From assembly GCA_039809465.1 (NCBI GenBank), contig JBDHVB010000003.1:1-55463 (forward strand): a stretch of DNA of 55,463 nt. Reading direction: 5' to 3'. Below the pieces are notes generated by a model that saw only the letters and a list, made by a program, of their open reading frames with translations, did no database searches and was not told the DNA's origin. The stretch's first letter is position 1; every line of letters begins with the position of its first letter. A program made the position numbers and the translations under genes. This stretch comes from Myxococcota bacterium. Lineage in GTDB: Bacteria > Myxococcota > XYA12-FULL-58-9 > JALHOP01. Shown piece after piece: positions 3,179 to 55,463 of the stretch.

Positions 3179-3963
3179 CCTGCATGACCTCTTCGCCCAA
3201 CAATCGCATGCAATGCGACGAAGTCACCCGCGCCATTCCTTGGCTTCTCGACGAAGAGCTCGACAGTCAACAGGCGGCCGAGGTCGAAGCGCACCTGCAT
3301 GACTGCGCCGAATGCCGCGTCGTGCTGCAGCGCGAGGGCCAGCTGCGGCTCGCCGTGCGTCGCGCCGGTGAGCTCGAGGAGTGTCCCGACAGCCTGCGCA
3401 ACAAGGTGAGCAGCGCCTGCACGCGCGAGAAGCGCCGTCACCTCGCTTGGCAGCGCACCTGGCCAGCGATGTCGGCCGCGGCCATCCTCGCGTCGTTCAT
3501 CTGGCAGGGCACGACCGGCAATGCCGAGGCGCAAGACCTCGAGGAAGCCGCCGTCCGCCACGCCCGCAATCTCCCGATGGATGTCGTCGCTGGCGACCTC
3601 GGCAGGGTCGAGCAGTACTTCGACGGCAAGCTCCCGTTCGCGGTGCACGTGCCAGACATCGTGCGCAACCAGCCCGCGTCCATCCAGCTGGGTGGCCGCG
3701 TCATCGACTTGTCGAACCGCGAAGCAGCGTACGTCCGCTATGACCTACCGGGTGGCCGCATGTCGATGTTCGTCTACCCGGATCCCAACCCCCGCTTCTC
3801 GGAGGTCATCCCGGGCTACCAAATAGGGGACCGCCGCGTGCTCATTCGCCAGGTGCGCGGCTATACGACGGCGCAGTGGCACTCGCAGGGTCTTGTTTAC
3901 TCGGTGGTTACAGATCTGCCGGAACGCGAGCTTTCGACGGTGCTGACAGCCAATATGCGGTGA
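3175..3963 (+). CDS. Zinc-binding (ZAS, zf-HC2) anti-sigma factor
   Basis: HxxxCxxC motif (HLHDCAEC) and a central hydrophobic helix. Start overlaps the sigma stop (GTGA). Confidence 0.9.
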   Translation: MTCMTSSPNNRMQCDEVTRAIPWLLDEELDSQQAAEVEAHLHDCAECRVVLQREGQLRLAVRRAGELEECPDSLRNKVSSACTREKRRHLAWQRTWPAMSAAAILASFIWQGTTGNAEAQDLEEAAVRHARNLPMDVVAGDLGRVEQYFDGKLPFAVHVPDIVRNQPASIQLGGRVIDLSNREAAYVRYDLPGGRMSMFVYPDPNPRFSEVIPGYQIGDRRVLIRQVRGYTTAQWHSQGLVYSVVTDLPERELSTVLTANMR

Positions 3964-3975
3964 GAGGGTAGGGCT

Positions 3976-4026
3976 TATCGGCTATCGGCTATCGGCTATC
4001 GGCTATCGGCTATCGGCTATCGGCTA
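3976..4026. repeat. Perfect heptamer tandem repeat (TATCGGC)x7 plus TA
   Basis: Read directly, between two convergent stop codons. Confidence 0.97.
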
Positions 4027-4034
4027 ATAGTCCC

Positions 4035-6272
4035 CTAACCCCTCGTCCTCCCCTCCATCACCCTCGCCAACACCTGCCGCAACGCCATACTCCGCGTAAA
4101 AAACATCTTACGCATCTCCCTCCCCGGAATCCTCACCACCCTCGCCGGCGTCACCGCCCGCGCAGTCGTCTCCCGCGCCTTGCTCGAATACACCGCCGTC
4201 ATCTCACCGAAGAAATTATCCCGCGAATCCGCCGCGACCTGAGCCACCACACGCTCCCCGCGCTTGAGCTCCACGTCGCCTTGCACCAGCACGAAGAAAT
4301 CGTCGGCCATCTGGCCCTGATGCATGATGATCTCACCCGCCGGATACCTCTCCTCGATACCGCTCTTCGCCAGCAACGAGCGGTCCGAGATCGACAAGCT
4401 CGCAAACAACGCCGAGCCATCGAGCAGGGGACGCAGCATCCGCATCCGCTCGACACTATCATCGGCCCCCGTCTCCGCGATCGCGGTGTCGACGAGCTCG
4501 CCTGGCAAATCCATCACGATCATCGGCGTCATCGCCGTGATGGTGGCGCTAGCGCGGCCCGAGCCATCCACTCCCTCGAAGACGCCGAAAAAGTCCCCAG
4601 GACGCAGCACCCGCGCGTGACCCGTGCCCGGATGCTTGTCGTGCGACGAGGACGACGCAGCCCCAGCCACGATGACGGTCAAGGCATCGCGCACCCCTGA
4701 AGCTTCACCCGCGGTCGCGAGCGCGGTGCCCGCGGCGACCTCACGCAGCCGGCCACGGAAGAGCGCCTCCGCCAGGAAGGCCGGGCTGAAGAAGCCCATC
4801 TCGCCAAGGGCCGCGACGATGCGCTGCGGAGCGAGCGCCGCCGGTGAGAGACCCTCGATGAGGGTATAGACCTTACCTGGCGTCCCGATCTCGTGACCGA
4901 AGCCGCGCGTGTGCTCGTTGTCGGGGCAGTGATAATAGACCACGTGATTGGCGCTCTTCTGCCAATCCTTCGGGTGGCCGTGGATCAACGCCTCGCCGAC
5001 GTCGGCGAAGAAGAGGCTGCGCGGCACCTTCTCGTCGGGGACGAGCTGGCTCAAGTGATCCGCCATCGCGGTCGGGACGGCGCCGGCCTCGCGCATCTTG
5101 GCGAGCCCATCGAGGTGCAACGTGTCGCCGCTGACGACGATGCGGTGGGTGAGGCCCTGGTCGTCGCGCAAGCTCACGTCGACGCCGAGCGTCGGGATGG
5201 GGTGCACCGTGTAGAAGAAGTCGAAGGTGGCGCCGGCGATCTCGACGGCCTCGCCAGGCGTGACGCGGTGATAGTCGACGAGCTTCGCCACCTCCTCGGG
5301 GGTGCTGTCGAAGTAGTTCGCGAGCTTCACCAGGGCGCTGCGGTAGATGGCTTCGGTGGTGTAGACGCGCGGGCGGTGGCCCGTGGTGGTCAGCTCCACG
5401 AAGCTGTTCATGTGATCCTCGTGGCAGTGCGAGAGGATCAACGCGTCGATGTCCGCGAAAGCGACACCCTGGCTGTCGAGCAAGGTGCGGGTGCGCGCCG
5501 GGCCGTCGAAGAGCACGCCGCGGCCGTTCACCCAGAAGAGGAAGCCGGTGGTCGGACCCGTGAGGTCGAAGCCGCTGCGCACGCCGAGCGATTGGATACC
5601 GAAGCGCAGGGGTAGCAGGGCGTCCTGTGGCGTCGGCAGCGTGTTGAAGGGCGTGATGTCCGCCGGAACGGTCAGGTCGACGAGCTCTTTCTGGCCGCCC
5701 GCGGTCACCGTCACGCCCGCGCCGGCATCGCGTGTCAGCTCGAGCCGGCCATCGAAGAGGCTGACGCTGCCATCGGCCGCGAACGGCACGGTGCGCACCA
5801 TGTCCTCGACCTGCATGATGGCGCCACCACGCTTCACCGCCATGTGATTGCTGATGGCGGTGAGCATGCTCATGTCGGCTTCGCTCATCGCTGGCCGGCC
5901 TCGGTTGTCGCGGTAGCTCTCGAGCTCCGCCGCGCTCGGGCCGAGCAGGGTCATGCGTAGGGCGTCGCGCTCGCCCTTTTCACGGTGGCCGTCGGTGACC
6001 AGGACCATGCGCTCGTTCGCGAGGTCTGGCTTGAAGGCGGCGCCGTAGATGAACAAGAAGTCGTAGAGGAAGAACTCGGGCACGAACTGTGGCGTCGCAT
6101 GCGCCAACGTCTGCCGTGGCGCGACCAAGACGCGCGGGAAAGCGATCTTGTGGGTGTTGCAGTAGGCTTTGACCGCCTTGAAGGCGTCGGCTGGAGCGCC
6201 CAGCAGGACCGAGCCGTCATCGGTCACGACCAGGGCAACGCCGGGGTACGGACGATGAATGGCGAGGGGCAT
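4035..6272 (-). CDS. MBL-fold metallohydrolase with two C-terminal cyclic-nucleotide-binding domains (putative cNMP phosphodiesterase)
   Basis: SHCHEDH (HxHxDH), TVHPIPT, SGDT and two cNMP-like segments (PGDFFG..RASATITA; NFFGEM..RETTARA). ATG at 6272 chosen. Confidence 0.8.
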   Translation of the reverse strand: MPLAIHRPYPGVALVVTDDGSVLLGAPADAFKAVKAYCNTHKIAFPRVLVAPRQTLAHATPQFVPEFFLYDFLFIYGAAFKPDLANERMVLVTDGHREKGERDALRMTLLGPSAAELESYRDNRGRPAMSEADMSMLTAISNHMAVKRGGAIMQVEDMVRTVPFAADGSVSLFDGRLELTRDAGAGVTVTAGGQKELVDLTVPADITPFNTLPTPQDALLPLRFGIQSLGVRSGFDLTGPTTGFLFWVNGRGVLFDGPARTRTLLDSQGVAFADIDALILSHCHEDHMNSFVELTTTGHRPRVYTTEAIYRSALVKLANYFDSTPEEVAKLVDYHRVTPGEAVEIAGATFDFFYTVHPIPTLGVDVSLRDDQGLTHRIVVSGDTLHLDGLAKMREAGAVPTAMADHLSQLVPDEKVPRSLFFADVGEALIHGHPKDWQKSANHVVYYHCPDNEHTRGFGHEIGTPGKVYTLIEGLSPAALAPQRIVAALGEMGFFSPAFLAEALFRGRLREVAAGTALATAGEASGVRDALTVIVAGAASSSSHDKHPGTGHARVLRPGDFFGVFEGVDGSGRASATITAMTPMIVMDLPGELVDTAIAETGADDSVERMRMLRPLLDGSALFASLSISDRSLLAKSGIEERYPAGEIIMHQGQMADDFFVLVQGDVELKRGERVVAQVAADSRDNFFGEMTAVYSSKARETTARAVTPARVVRIPGREMRKMFFTRSMALRQVLARVMEGRTRG

Positions 6273-52582: not shown

Positions 52583-53056
52583 ATGTCGAGCTTCCCGATT
52601 ACGCCTGATGGCCTCGAGCGCATGAAAAGCGAGCTGCACAACCTCAAGACGCACGAGCGCCCGAAAATCAGCAAAGAGATCGGTGAAGCGCGCGAGCTTG
52701 GCGACCTGTCGGAGAACTTCGAGTACCACGCCGCTAAAGACCGCCAGGGTCTGGTCGAGGCGAAGATCCGCGACCTCGAGGACAAGGTGGCGCGCGCGCA
52801 GGTGATCGATCCCACGAAGCTGGGCGGTGAGCGCGTCGTGTTTGGCGCTACCGTGACCATCGAGGATGTCGAGGACGGCTCGGCCAAGCAGTACACCATC
52901 CTCGGCGAGTACGAGGCTGATGTAGAGAACGGGAAGATCAACGTCAATTCGCCATTGGCGCGCGCCCTCATCGGTAAGGAAGTCGGTGACGAGGTGAAGA
53001 TCCCCGGTAAGGGCGGGCAGCGTACCGTCGAGATCAGCGCGATCAGCTTCAAGTGA
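52583..53056 (+). CDS. greA: Transcription elongation factor GreA
   Basis: GDLSENFEYHAAK, VFGATV, SPLARALIGK. Confidence 0.96.
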   Translation: MSSFPITPDGLERMKSELHNLKTHERPKISKEIGEARELGDLSENFEYHAAKDRQGLVEAKIRDLEDKVARAQVIDPTKLGGERVVFGATVTIEDVEDGSAKQYTILGEYEADVENGKINVNSPLARALIGKEVGDEVKIPGKGGQRTVEISAISFK

Positions 53057-53060
53057 CGGC

Positions 53061-55463
53061 GTGAGTAACGAGAAGGCGACGGAGCTAGAGACGCTCCTCG
53101 CACCCTTGCGTAACCCGCTGACCTTCGCGGCTCGCAATGACTTCGAGAACGTCGAGCGCATCAAGGATCTGGAGAAGACCTTGCTGGCGGCCGCGCGGCG
53201 GTTGGTGGGGGTTGTGCGCGATGGCGGAGTTAGGGCGAGGCTTGGGAGTATCGTGGAGGTGTTGGAGGGGAAGGGGGGGCGGAAGGAGAAGGTGAGGAGG
53301 GTGTTGGAGGAGGTGGAGGCGATTGCGGAGGGGAGGGAGCCGATTGCCGATAGCCGAAGGCTGATAGCCGATGGCCGAGGACCGATAGCCGAGAGCCGAT
53401 TGCCGAAGGCCGATGACCGAAGGCCGATCGCCGATGGCCGAAAGCCGATTGCCGATAGCCGACCGCCGATCGCCGATGACCGAGCGCCGCCCGCCGAGCG
53501 CCGTGTCTCGAAGAAGCCCGAGTCCCTCTCGCTCAAGTCCGAGGTCCAGTACGTCAAGGGTATTGGGCCGGGGATTGCCAAGCTCTTGAACGACAAGGGC
53601 ATCGCGACCGTCGAGGATCTCATCCGCTTTCTTCCCCGCCGTTACGAGGATCGCTCCCTCCGGGGCAGCATCCGCGATCTGACTCCCGGGGAAGGTGCGA
53701 CGATTCAAGGGACCATCCTCGCCAAGTCCGCCAAGAATTTCCGCGGCCGCCGCTCGCTCGAGGTGGCGATTGGTGACGATACCGGGACGCTGCGGCTCAC
53801 TTGGTTCCGCTCGCTGGGGGCTGACTGGGCGGAGCGCTTCGCGAAGGGGAAGCGTGTCCAGGTCTCGGGGGTGGTCAAGGTGTTCCGTGGCCAGCTGCAG
53901 ATGGCGCATCCCGAGACACGTATCCTCGACGACGATGGCCCCGCTCCCGAGGCGCCCACCGAGCTCGTTCCTATTTACAGCGAGATCGAAGGCCTGCGCC
54001 CGCAGCAGCTGCGCCGCGTGCTCGACAACGTGTTGCCGCTCGCAAGCCACCTCGACGACTGCATCCCGACCGCCATCGCGGAGCGCCACCACCTCCCGGA
54101 TCTCGGCACCTCGGTGCAACTCCTGCACCGCCCGCCGCGCGCGACCGACCTCCAAGCGCTGCTCGACATGGCCACGCCCTGGCACAAGCGCCTCATCTAC
54201 GAGGAGCTCTTCCTGCTCCAGCTCGTCGTCCTGCAGCGCAAGGCCAAGGCCGCCGCCGAAGCGGGCAGGGCGGTGAGCTTCGGCGCGTCTCTCGCCGACG
54301 AAGCCGTGAAGCTCTTCCCGTTCGCGCTCACCAAGGCGCAGAGCCGCGTCCTGCGTGACATCGAGCACGACATGGGCAAAGCCGTGCCGATGCATCGCTT
54401 GCTGCAAGGCGACGTCGGCAGCGGTAAGACGGCCGTCGCCATGTCCGCTGCGGCGGCCATCGCTCATGCCGGCATGCAGGTCGCCATCATGGCCCCGACC
54501 GAGCTCCTCGCCGAGCAGCACGCCCGCACCGCGCTCGCCAGTCTCCCGAAGGCCGGCATCCGCGTCGATGTGCTCACGGGCTCGGTCACGGCGGCCGAGC
54601 GGCGGCGCATCCTCGGTGGTCTCGCGAGCGGCAACATCCAGGTCGTCGTCGGCACCCACGCGCTCATCCAGGCCGACGTGCGCTTCCACAAGCTCGCCCT
54701 CGGCATCATCGACGAGCAACACCGCTTTGGCGTACTGCAGCGCGCCCGCCTGCTCGAGCAGGGTCGCGAATCCCTCGGGGCCACGCCGCACGTGCTGGTC
54801 ATGACCGCGACGCCGATCCCACGCACGCTCGCGCTCACGGTGTACGGCGACCTCGACGTCTCGATCATCGACGAGCTGCCCCCGGGCCGCACGCCGGTGA
54901 AGACGGTGCTCTACCGTGAGAAGCAGCGCGACCAAGTGTACCGCCGCGTCCGCCACGCCGTGGAGCAGGGCCGCCAAGCCTACGTCGTGTTCCCGCTGGT
55001 CGAGGAGTCGGACAAGGAAGGCATGGCGGAGATCCGCGCGGTCACGAGCGAAGCCGAGGACCTCGCGAATGGCGCGCTCCACGGTCTGCGCATTGGCCTC
55101 TTGCACGGCCGGCTCGACGCCGCCGCCAAGGAGCAGGTGATGCGCGCCTTCCTCAACAAGCAGATCGACGTGCTGGTGGCGACCACCGTCGTCGAGGTCG
55201 GCATCGACGTCCCGAACGCGACGGTGATGGTCATCGAGCACGCCGAGCGCTTCGGTCTGTCGCAGCTCCATCAGCTCCGTGGCCGCGTCGGCCGTGGCGC
55301 GCACGCCAGCGAGTGCTTGCTGCTCACCTCGGGCACGTCGAGCGACGACGCGTGGCGCCGCTTGGGCGTCATGGAGGAGACGGCCGACGGCTTCAAGATC
55401 GCCGAAGCGGACCTCGAGATCCGCGGCCCCGGCGACTTCATCGGCACGCGCCAGTCCGGCTTG
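53061..55463 (+). CDS. recG: ATP-dependent DNA helicase RecG (3' end truncated by the window)
   Basis: Hand-translated from GTG at 53061: VKGIGP, FLPRRYEDR, RLLQGDVGSGKT, DEQHRFG, MTATPIPRT, QLHQLRGRVGRG, DLEIRGPG. Absent from the ORF track because there is no stop in the window. Confidence 0.95.
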   Translation, partial: MSNEKATELETLLAPLRNPLTFAARNDFENVERIKDLEKTLLAAARRLVGVVRDGGVRARLGSIVEVLEGKGGRKEKVRRVLEEVEAIAEGREPIADSRRLIADGRGPIAESRLPKADDRRPIADGRKPIADSRPPIADDRAPPAERRVSKKPESLSLKSEVQYVKGIGPGIAKLLNDKGIATVEDLIRFLPRRYEDRSLRGSIRDLTPGEGATIQGTILAKSAKNFRGRRSLEVAIGDDTGTLRLTWFRSLGADWAERFAKGKRVQVSGVVKVFRGQLQMAHPETRILDDDGPAPEAPTELVPIYSEIEGLRPQQLRRVLDNVLPLASHLDDCIPTAIAERHHLPDLGTSVQLLHRPPRATDLQALLDMATPWHKRLIYEELFLLQLVVLQRKAKAAAEAGRAVSFGASLADEAVKLFPFALTKAQSRVLRDIEHDMGKAVPMHRLLQGDVGSGKTAVAMSAAAAIAHAGMQVAIMAPTELLAEQHARTALASLPKAGIRVDVLTGSVTAAERRRILGGLASGNIQVVVGTHALIQADVRFHKLALGIIDEQHRFGVLQRARLLEQGRESLGATPHVLVMTATPIPRTLALTVYGDLDVSIIDELPPGRTPVKTVLYREKQRDQVYRRVRHAVEQGRQAYVVFPLVEESDKEGMAEIRAVTSEAEDLANGALHGLRIGLLHGRLDAAAKEQVMRAFLNKQIDVLVATTVVEVGIDVPNATVMVIEHAERFGLSQLHQLRGRVGRGAHASECLLLTSGTSSDDAWRRLGVMEETADGFKIAEADLEIRGPGDFIGTRQSGL
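53339..53485 (+). repeat. Degenerate heptamer array (consensus GCCGATA/GCCGANN) x21, in frame inside recG
   Basis: Read directly. It is the reverse complement of the unit at 3976-4026, and 147 nt equals 49 codons. Confidence 0.95.

Follow-up and report, generated by a model that had tools for sequence, protein, structure and literature searches.

Strand-polar composition shadows beside GCCGANN heptamer arrays in a Myxococcota genome, and their possible origin in biased DNA resynthesis

Why should part of a conserved DNA-repair gene have lost nearly all of its cytosines just where a short tandem repeat begins? The question arises in recG of a Myxococcota bacterium (GTDB lineage Bacteria; Myxococcota; XYA12-FULL-58-9; JALHOP01; assembly GCA_039809465.1), on contig JBDHVB010000003.1, whose 55,463 nucleotides are the window, meaning the whole stretch of DNA that was analysed; it is one entire contig of a 5.6-Mb assembly of 403 contigs with 66.6% GC. 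The open reading frame of recG (53061..55463, forward strand) runs off the 3' end of the window. Within its N-terminal extension a C-poor, G-rich zone (53190..53338, forward strand) lies 5' of a heptamer array of 21 in-frame GCCGANN-type units, or 49 codons (53339..53485, forward strand), with decayed units continuing to about 53503. An original prediction, made from the sequence alone, had proposed that a mutational process tied to the repeat depletes C here. We found that the effect is general: the flanks of the arrays carry about ninety such "shadows" in the genome, and proteins have been altered too.

The composition of the recG zone is extreme, its core being poorer in C than any other stretch of the 5.6-Mb assembly. 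Its 86-nt core (53253-53338) consists of 18 A, 3 C, 54 G and 11 T, and the 150 nt from 53190 to 53339 contain 88 G and 14 C. The nearest C-ending codon upstream of the array is ATC at 53250, with 29 intervening codons that have no third-position C, and thus a base count and a count in the recG frame both reproduce the observations from which the prediction started (3 C in 86 nt and no C-ending codon among the 29 before the array). GC skew in 90-nt windows reaches its maximum of +0.86 at 53230-53319, and the other recG windows listed range from about -0.36 to +0.31. When both strands of the 5.6-Mb assembly were counted, 19 of 11,162,708 windows of 86 nt held three or fewer of the counted base; allowing up to five gave six merged regions genome-wide, of which the recG zone is the longest. 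Four of the six abut an array by an automatic rule, and the other two, judged by eye, are contig ends that enter heptamer units.

The gene is a recG by its domain order, a wedge domain followed by superfamily-2 helicase domains (RecG_wedge, 3e-23, residues 161-325; DEAD, 3.9e-22; Helicase_C, 1.5e-21; and the start of RecG_dom3_C). The array is periodic at 7 nt, with 23.6 copies over 53339-53503, and at 21 nt as well, and its two-unit pattern matches 27 times against 4.59 expected, a count that 0 of 100 shuffles equalled. It sits in frame in the N-terminal extension, ahead of the wedge domain (residue 161 on), and the zone encodes a charged, low-complexity peptide that adjoins the repeat linker. 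Residues 1-93 (53061-53340) form an N-terminal domain of about 90 residues that is conserved in the order and phylum and is followed by a variable linker and the wedge; no Pfam match was found for this domain, the first match beginning at residue 161.

The recG zone is not an assembly artefact, because contigs of independent runs reproduce it. Logan contigs from four runs of four studies, labelled activated sludge or wastewater, were compared with 52700-54200. Independently built contigs showed no differences over 52891-53361 and none over 53284-53464, and one over 53146-53273 carried a single T>G; the sequencing or assembly error that had been named beforehand as a danger to the claim did not materialise. 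A fourth contig joins 53422 to 53465, which makes the array 42 nt (6 units, 14 codons) shorter with the frame kept, and the length of the recG array and RecG linker is therefore polymorphic among strains. No RNA runs containing the recG stretch were found.

Arrays were collected throughout the assembly as at least three units of [GA]C[CT]GANN, neighbours up to 60 nt apart being merged, a rule that returned 141 stretches in 95 merged loci, the latter number being a lower bound. Tandem 7-nt units are found at many intergenic and intragenic sites: among 81 classifiable loci, 17 lie in an open frame on the same strand, 7 in a frame on the opposite strand, and most others are wholly or partly intergenic. 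Many contigs begin or end in a heptamer array (e.g., C60:3-79, C64:7-125, C112:16-85, C168:1-77, C193:1-154 and C233:3-107), and the arrays are probably a main cause of assembly fragmentation.

When the loci were oriented on the GCCGA strand, a common flank profile emerged. In the meta-profile the 100 nt upstream of arrays have a G fraction of 0.41-0.46 and a C fraction of 0.17-0.24, with A and T flat. Among 87 scorable loci, G exceeds C in the upstream 100 nt in 93% and the skew is above 0.3 in 67%, a value passed by 0.9% of 20,000 random windows; downstream, C exceeds G in 83% and the skew is below -0.3 in 30%. For the 75 arrays of at least 42 nt, the upstream skew declines by 100-nt bins from 0.405 to 0.203, 0.087, 0.075, 0.053 and 0.019 and then to about 0, and the downstream skew goes from -0.186 to about -0.03. 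The sign pattern is symmetric under a strand flip, running G-rich, array, C-rich on either strand, and the effect 5' of the GCCGA strand is about twofold larger in size and fivefold in reach than the effect 3' of it. A polarity fixed relative to the repeat, which had been read from two loci, is thus seen at about 90, with the 5' side stronger, and the weaker zone on the 3' side of the arrays, where the sign is reversed, is a feature that the original prediction did not contain. Upstream skew correlates with the diversity of units in an array (unit entropy, rho 0.40, p=1e-4) and with their number (rho 0.31). The purity of an array was considered as a clock and rejected, as the perfect 7-unit array of a companion locus in the same window (locus 1, below) has a strong zone.

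The sign of the skew follows the strand of the array and not that of the gene. Genes were called crudely, as long open frames with a signature in GC content at third codon positions (83% coverage of the first 40 contigs). Upstream skew was +0.40 at the 39 loci whose flanking gene shares the strand of the array, +0.28 at the 13 whose gene lies on the complementary strand, and +0.37 at the 25 that lack a called gene. Codons near an array (within 120 nt) were compared with codons far from it (400-900 nt), using 1431 near and 4758 far codons of same-strand genes and 340 near and 1360 far codons of opposite-strand genes. At fourfold third positions of same-strand genes, C falls from 0.47 far to 0.14 near and G rises from 0.40 to 0.72, with T at 0.09 and 0.10; the C-ending share of Y-ending twofold codons drops from 0.82 to 0.42, and the AGR share of Arg codons climbs from 0.04 to 0.38. 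Opposite-strand genes show the complement, with the G-ending share of Lys, Glu and Gln codons going from 0.84 far to 0.38 near, Gly frequency from 0.088 to 0.041 and Pro frequency from 0.050 to 0.097. The composition shift is largest at synonymous third positions. Since the skew is present in either gene orientation and the codon data agree, the constraint acts on a DNA strand set by the array, which excludes protein-level selection, gene ends and terminators. The earlier argument against a terminator or gene-end effect accordingly extends to about 90 loci with non-coding flanks and coding flanks in either orientation. The skew sign is constant with genes on either strand, which is not the behaviour of replication or transcription skew, and because gene direction sets no skew sign, the R-loop potential raised at the outset loses ground, at least for an R-loop made by the gene transcript. 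Array orientation had no link to the local 20-kb GC skew (30/64, p=0.71), which is a weak proxy for replication in a 403-contig assembly.

The effect is specific to these arrays in this lineage. Across the same genome, 390 other tandem repeats of at least 40 nt have a left-minus-right skew of 0.00 (standard deviation 0.19; 1% above 0.4), and 67 heptamer arrays found with Tandem Repeats Finder (TRF) have one of +0.57 (73% above 0.4). Upstream and downstream skews in two congeners were +0.35/-0.24 (G003, 20 arrays) and +0.18/-0.20 (G001, 19 arrays), for arrays taken from a BLAST match list rather than at random, some of which are perhaps orthologous to arrays of the present genome (G000). When one genome of each species was scanned for four perfect GCCGATN units, at least 119 stretches were found, spread over many phyla. 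Such runs, of at least four units, were seen in metagenome-assembled genomes labelled Chloroflexota (among them several Oscillochloris bins), Acidobacteriota, Planctomycetota, Verrucomicrobiota, Gemmatimonadota and others (L074-L153). Arrays of the same heptamer in other phyla cast no shadow, with skews of +0.04/-0.04 for 88 mostly short arrays at 80 loci among the matches listed, and so the heptamer sequence alone is not the cause.

Comparison with relatives indicates that the zones arose in place from ordinary sequence. RecG N-terminal regions were taken from 20 loci of the same order and phylum, and 18 were anchored and aligned. Residue by residue, the zone's 45 codons correspond to a conserved helical domain of array-free relatives, and array-derived heptads are present only in the four genomes of the genus, all at the same site. 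Over these codons the C/G fractions are 0.07/0.59 in this genome, 0.18/0.50 in G003, 0.19/0.50 in G002 and 0.25/0.42 in G001, depletion being weakest in G001, the holder of the most decayed array. The original prediction had singled out equally G-rich array-free homologues as the observation that would count against it; the 14 array-free outgroup segments, at C 0.23-0.41 and G 0.16-0.42, are not C-poor and G-rich and do not refute the claim. Changes specific to this genome comprise 17 C losses and 3 C gains, and 14 of the 17 losses fall at codon positions 1 or 2, in agreement with the expectation that the RecG protein itself had been changed. In G003 the counterpart of the 7-mer directly before the array is an intact unit, and erosion therefore seems to have reached the array at its 5' edge, as if C loss were eating into it.

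The companion array, (GCCGATA)x7 at 3976..4024 on the reverse strand, stands 10 nt past the stop of a 775-aa gene, between convergent genes. The gene encodes a metallo-beta-lactamase and cyclic nucleotide monophosphate (cNMP)-binding protein, whose Pfam cNMP_binding domain reaches residue 755 and is overlapped by the C-poor zone (4027..4160, reverse strand; 17 C and 67 G in 134 nt), made up of about the last 41 codons and the 10-nt spacer. A weaker C-rich, G-poor flank lies 3' of the array (3886..3975, reverse strand; 32 C and 19 G in 90 nt). At the orthologous site G001, G002 and G003 have no array and use ordinary C-ending codons. The zone has the same length and frame as its orthologues in the congeners and differs from them by point substitutions, with a C fraction of 0.10-0.20 here against 0.29-0.40 in the three congeners. 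Over the last 135 nt C was lost at 27 sites and gained at 1, and G was gained at 17 and lost at 0; the gradient with distance is visible within this single locus too.

Further loci could be followed in the congeners. At C112 three congeners without an array have normal composition, and in this genome an inverted repeat past the stop codon was overwritten. At C151 the one array-free congener is normal and congeners with short arrays are intermediate. By such comparison, dependence on the repeat is found at locus 1 and C112, where array-free orthologues are normal in three congeners each, and at C151, where they are normal in one. At C284:1451-1499 (L199) an array and a C-poor zone lie in an open frame that, by its flank, reads as a putative ligD linker; arrays are also present at this site in G002 and G003 and absent in G001, and a second DNA-repair gene may therefore carry such an array insert. 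Other loci were less suitable: C5 had no orthologue at E<=1e-30, C24 had one in a single congener only, C148, matched over its distal 300-400 nt only, was left out of the comparison, and the relatives of C9 and C28 are too repeat-rich for substitution counts.

The kind of change that made the zones was obtained by pooling five loci (recG, locus 1, the putative ligD linker on C284, C112 and C65) and counting sites at which this genome differs from at least two of three congeners. Zones were the nearest 135-150 nt (647 aligned sites), and controls ran from 271 or 301 nt upstream onward, or were the rest of recG (3756 sites). C was lost at 97 of 170 zone sites (57.1%) and 228 of 1279 control sites (17.8%), a 3.2-fold excess (p=6e-26), the zone losses going to G (43), T (33) and A (21), which is the kind of C>G/T/A excess that the original prediction had proposed to test for at recG. 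G gain was raised 2.9-fold (74/367 against 177/2509) and A/T-to-G 3.1-fold (31/197 against 62/1230, p=5e-7), while C gain was reduced to 0.43 of control (15/477 against 182/2477), G loss to 0.49 (19/280 against 172/1247) and G-to-C to 0.25 (6/280 against 106/1247). A/T-to-C stood at 0.74 of control (9/197 against 76/1230), and A-to-T with T-to-A did not differ significantly (6/197 against 20/1230). As G-to-A/T was about equal (13/280 against 66/1247), the reduction in G loss is due entirely to G-to-C. The depletion of C is thus real and linked to the repeat, as proposed, but it is not C loss alone. A single bias, too little C and too much G placed into the strand that reads into the array, explains every rate, with part of the G-to-C deficit left over. 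The sequence context of lost C was also considered and set aside: GCG is kept and CC is most often lost, a pattern that largely reflects composition and codon structure and is uninformative.

What has to be accounted for is a set of observations, namely association with arrays, polarity, decay with distance, origin in place and the substitution spectrum. Our reading of the sequence comparisons is that the shadows were made by array-anchored, strand-polar, biased and error-prone DNA resynthesis, to which we assign a probability of about 50%; we favour it because one bias in nucleotide choice fits rates that neither fixation bias nor cytosine damage fits. The array would be a recurrent site of a DNA transaction (a break, stall or nick), which would lead to resynthesis of tracts of variable length adjoining the array. 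On the strand reading 5'->3' into the array, copying would insert C too rarely and G too often, or it would have the reverse bias on the complement, so that adjacent DNA, coding in either orientation or non-coding, would gradually be rewritten in place, C to G, T or A and A or T to G. The effect would peak in the first 100 nt and fade over about 500 nt 5' of the GCCGA strand, with a weaker mirror zone of about 100 nt on the 3' side. For the mutational process put forward in the original prediction, the link to the repeat is established and the spectrum favours mutation over selection as the origin of the zones; the mechanism outlined here is inferred. A more specific version, in which the arrays are loading or recognition sites of a lineage-specific DNA-processing machine that resynthesises a few hundred nt on their 5' side with G for C and without reverse transcriptase, would make this a natural, sequence-targeted and strand-polar hypermutation by which ordinary genes (recG, the putative ligD, the cNMP-binding enzyme) have their ends and linkers rewritten, with about 90 shadows per genome; we regard that version as speculative and rather unlikely.

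Several points weigh against biased resynthesis. Upstream and downstream skews are uncorrelated (rho -0.06, n=61), and a single two-sided event would predict a correlation. The zone shows no excess polymorphism at recG, with a single difference over 128 nt where the same run has 7 over 299 nt and 23 over 739 nt of the surroundings (few contigs), although this may reflect how little C is left to mutate. The spectrum comes from five loci and is polarised by the majority of three relatives without an outgroup, and at DNA identities of 72-87% multiple substitutions are likely. G-to-C was observed 6 times where about 16 would be expected after allowing for re-loss of new C, a deficit that selection would give too. 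Shadow-free arrays in other phyla mean that a lineage-specific factor is required, and a replication link to the arrays is neither shown nor excluded by the 20-kb skew proxy. Finally, biased repair synthesis, its trigger and its polymerase are all deduced from patterns of substitution.

The rival that survives best, though we consider it unlikely, is selection or another fixation bias, in which some function of the DNA or RNA requires that a leader rich in G and free of C precede the array and a C-rich trailer follow it. Such a function might be control of Rho loading (transcripts that leave the array in either direction are C-rich and G-poor), general pairing of G-rich and C-rich arms, or protection of the array. 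Such a bias would shift gains and losses alike, as is seen in C gain, G loss and G-to-C; the recG zone has been retained in four species, it is not hypervariable among strains, and conserved protein residues have been overridden at recG and locus 1, all of which a functional requirement would allow. It fails on the changes that should have been suppressed. The reverse changes are up about threefold, and a fixation bias of that strength should lower G-to-A/T and A/T-to-C five- to ten-fold, to about 3 and about 1 events where 13 and 9 were counted. The smooth decay over about 500 nt, present even within one locus, is unlike a bounded element; every sequence context is affected, and the inverted repeat past the stop codon at C112 was destroyed. 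Flanks also have no locus-specific complementarity, and G-runs and G4 motifs are under-represented.

Plain cytosine damage in exposed single-stranded DNA, whether after resection, at a stalled fork or in an R-loop behind a stalled RNA polymerase, with kataegis-like deamination and bypass of abasic sites, seems to us improbable. From yeast work, changes of C to G, T and A are what abasic-site bypass should produce, and all three destinations are represented in the zones. The polarity fits as well, in that resection on either side would leave single-stranded the strand ending 3' at the array, and on both sides it is this strand that is poor in C, and fragile repeats in yeast raise mutation of flanking genes on both sides, according to the available part of one report (PMC3681665). 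Damage to C does not explain the rise in A/T-to-G or the fall in G-to-C, however, and T is not enriched, either at fourfold third positions or in the meta-profile, where A and T are flat. In its R-loop form this explanation meets the further difficulty that the skew sign is independent of gene direction; RNA runs holding the locus were not found.

That the zone arrived with the array as a mobile or duplicated element, or consists of decayed array units, is very improbable. In addition to the 7-mer that aligns with a G003 unit, two further in-phase 7-mers upstream of the recG array are unit-like, and in another family of the order (G014, below) arrays alternate with a conserved element, but the recG zone corresponds residue by residue to the N-terminal domain of array-free relatives, the zones of locus 1 and C112 are orthologous to normal sequence in three congeners and differ by point substitutions, and the locus 1 zone overlaps a Pfam domain, which largely refutes the idea at all three loci so examined. 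Protein-level selection for a linker rich in Gly, Arg, Glu, Lys and Val, or a sequencing or assembly artefact, is barely credible: a charged, low-complexity peptide does lie beside the repeat linker and arrays are often at contig ends, but the skew extends to non-coding flanks and to opposite-strand genes (Pro up, Gly down), is greatest at synonymous third positions, and is seen at recG in contigs from runs of four studies and in the genomes of three other species.

Some structural and enzymatic candidates were tried and rejected. A hairpin or cruciform with the array as its loop would pair each locus with its own flank, but duplex energies were -59.0 kcal/mol for own and -57.7 kcal/mol for swapped flanks (Wilcoxon p=0.30, 61 loci), and a flank's best partner was its own in 7 of 61 loci against 6.8 expected. 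The G-quadruplex potential suggested at the outset did not hold up: 53150-53345 has no G3+ motif with loops up to 12 nt, and genome-wide counts fall short of those in shuffles, at 325 G3+ runs (shuffles 423.5 +/- 12.3) and 9 G4 motifs (shuffles 16.4). Retro-conversion of the kind performed by diversity-generating retroelements (DGRs) was rejected, as PF00078 (RVT_1) was found in none of the four genomes of the genus (completeness 85-97%), nor in G009 or G014; it was found in 14 of 41 genomes searched, all of other genera.

Biased resynthesis can be set beside several known systems. Asymmetric mutation during replication and transcription gives an excess of G over C on one strand, with a sign that switches at a defined point, and chromosomal skews amount to a few percent. 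Here contigs of at least 20 kb have a mean absolute skew of 0.022, against 0.4-0.86 in array flanks, and the sign in the flanks follows the array, neither the gene strand nor the local 20-kb skew, with no rise in T. In kataegis at resected breaks, C changes occur on one strand to one side of the break and G changes on the other, C going to T and G; in the zones A/T-to-G is raised, G-to-C is lowered and T is not enriched, and no cytosine deaminase came to light, no search aimed at one having been made. DGRs alter a polar tract of about 100 nt in a base-specific way, with a marker at its 3' side and often at the 3' end of a gene, and it is adenines that are affected. By contrast, the zones are unique orthologous sequences without a template repeat, and their changes are C-to-N and N-to-G, affecting C and not A.

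The arrays themselves resemble other dispersed heptanucleotides. Cyanobacterial short tandemly repeated repetitive (STRR) heptamers are dispersed tandem 7-nt units. Geobacter metallireducens has GGGACCG x4 elements at 49 intergenic and intragenic sites (PMC2700814, in the part available). The likeness to both lies in tandem 7-nt units in and between the genes of one lineage that are read in frame within genes. The unit sequences differ, which makes this an analogy and not a membership, and flank composition goes unmentioned in the available part of the Geobacter article (PMC2700814). A full-text literature search turned up no account of GCCGAT arrays, nor any of composition shadows next to tandem repeats in bacteria.

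The closest parallel is repeat-induced mutagenesis in yeast, where GAA/TTC and inverted repeats raised mutation of flanking reporters on both sides, with breakage, long single-stranded regions and faulty synthesis by the translesion polymerase Pol zeta implicated in the part of the study available (Saini et al., 2013; PMC3681665). As there, it takes a repeat for the flanks to change, both sides are affected and the effect fades with distance, here from 0.405 to about 0 over 600 nt upstream and from -0.186 to about 0 past 100 nt downstream, the sides being unequal. The yeast case, in the same part of the report, is a laboratory effect on rates that reaches 8 kb from structure-forming repeats in a eukaryote (PMC3681665), whereas ours, known from sequence, is a footprint left by evolution at about 90 loci in a bacterial genome, a few hundred nt long, of fixed polarity, with G for C and inverted codon usage. 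The shadows are best classed as repeat-associated mutagenesis in a bacterial form, distinguished by a signature specific to strand and base. If this reading is true, a short tandem repeat of a bacterium sets up a mutational field close around itself that inverts codon usage and turns CGN Arg codons into AGR, alters residues conserved in repair and signalling proteins and wipes out a hairpin downstream, and it would be, as far as the literature search found, the first evolutionary footprint of repeat-induced mutagenesis in bacteria. The arrays would then offer a natural system for studying how repeats recruit error-prone synthesis, with a strand- and base-specific read-out. On the practical side, gene finders based on composition and measures of codon adaptation will misjudge the zones, GC-skew plots will spike at them, and short-read assemblies break at the arrays (for example C60, C64, C112, C168, C193 and C233).

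Heptamer arrays take a different form in G014, a genome of another family in the same order with about 50% GC in the DNA fetched. There they alternate with a conserved element of 72-74 nt (e.g., L055:71-788, L068:551-1143 and L063:692-846), which takes up the flanks of the arrays, so that flank composition is not comparable. The element has conserved ends that flank a variable hairpin, with 27 distinct copies, and an alignment of 17 copies shows compensatory changes in 11 of 19 predicted pairs. It matched no Rfam family; at the gathering score Rfam gave nothing in the window, and five G014 loci gave only two sub-threshold matches to archaeal snoRNAs, which we take as chance.

Two other repeats were seen in G000. 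A 12-base motif, TCCGC-Y-WW(W)-AG-M, which resembles a highly iterated near-palindrome, has 519 copies on both strands, mostly genic, against a rough composition-based expectation of about 47; it occurs in the window at positions such as 52036, 24535, 10023 and 15973, and just 14 of the copies are found within 200 nt of an array, where 4.2 would be expected. Tandem repeats of 75 and 83 nt, with an 18-nt perfect palindrome per unit, are found at G000:C203:9863-10129 and G000:C133:3422-3635.

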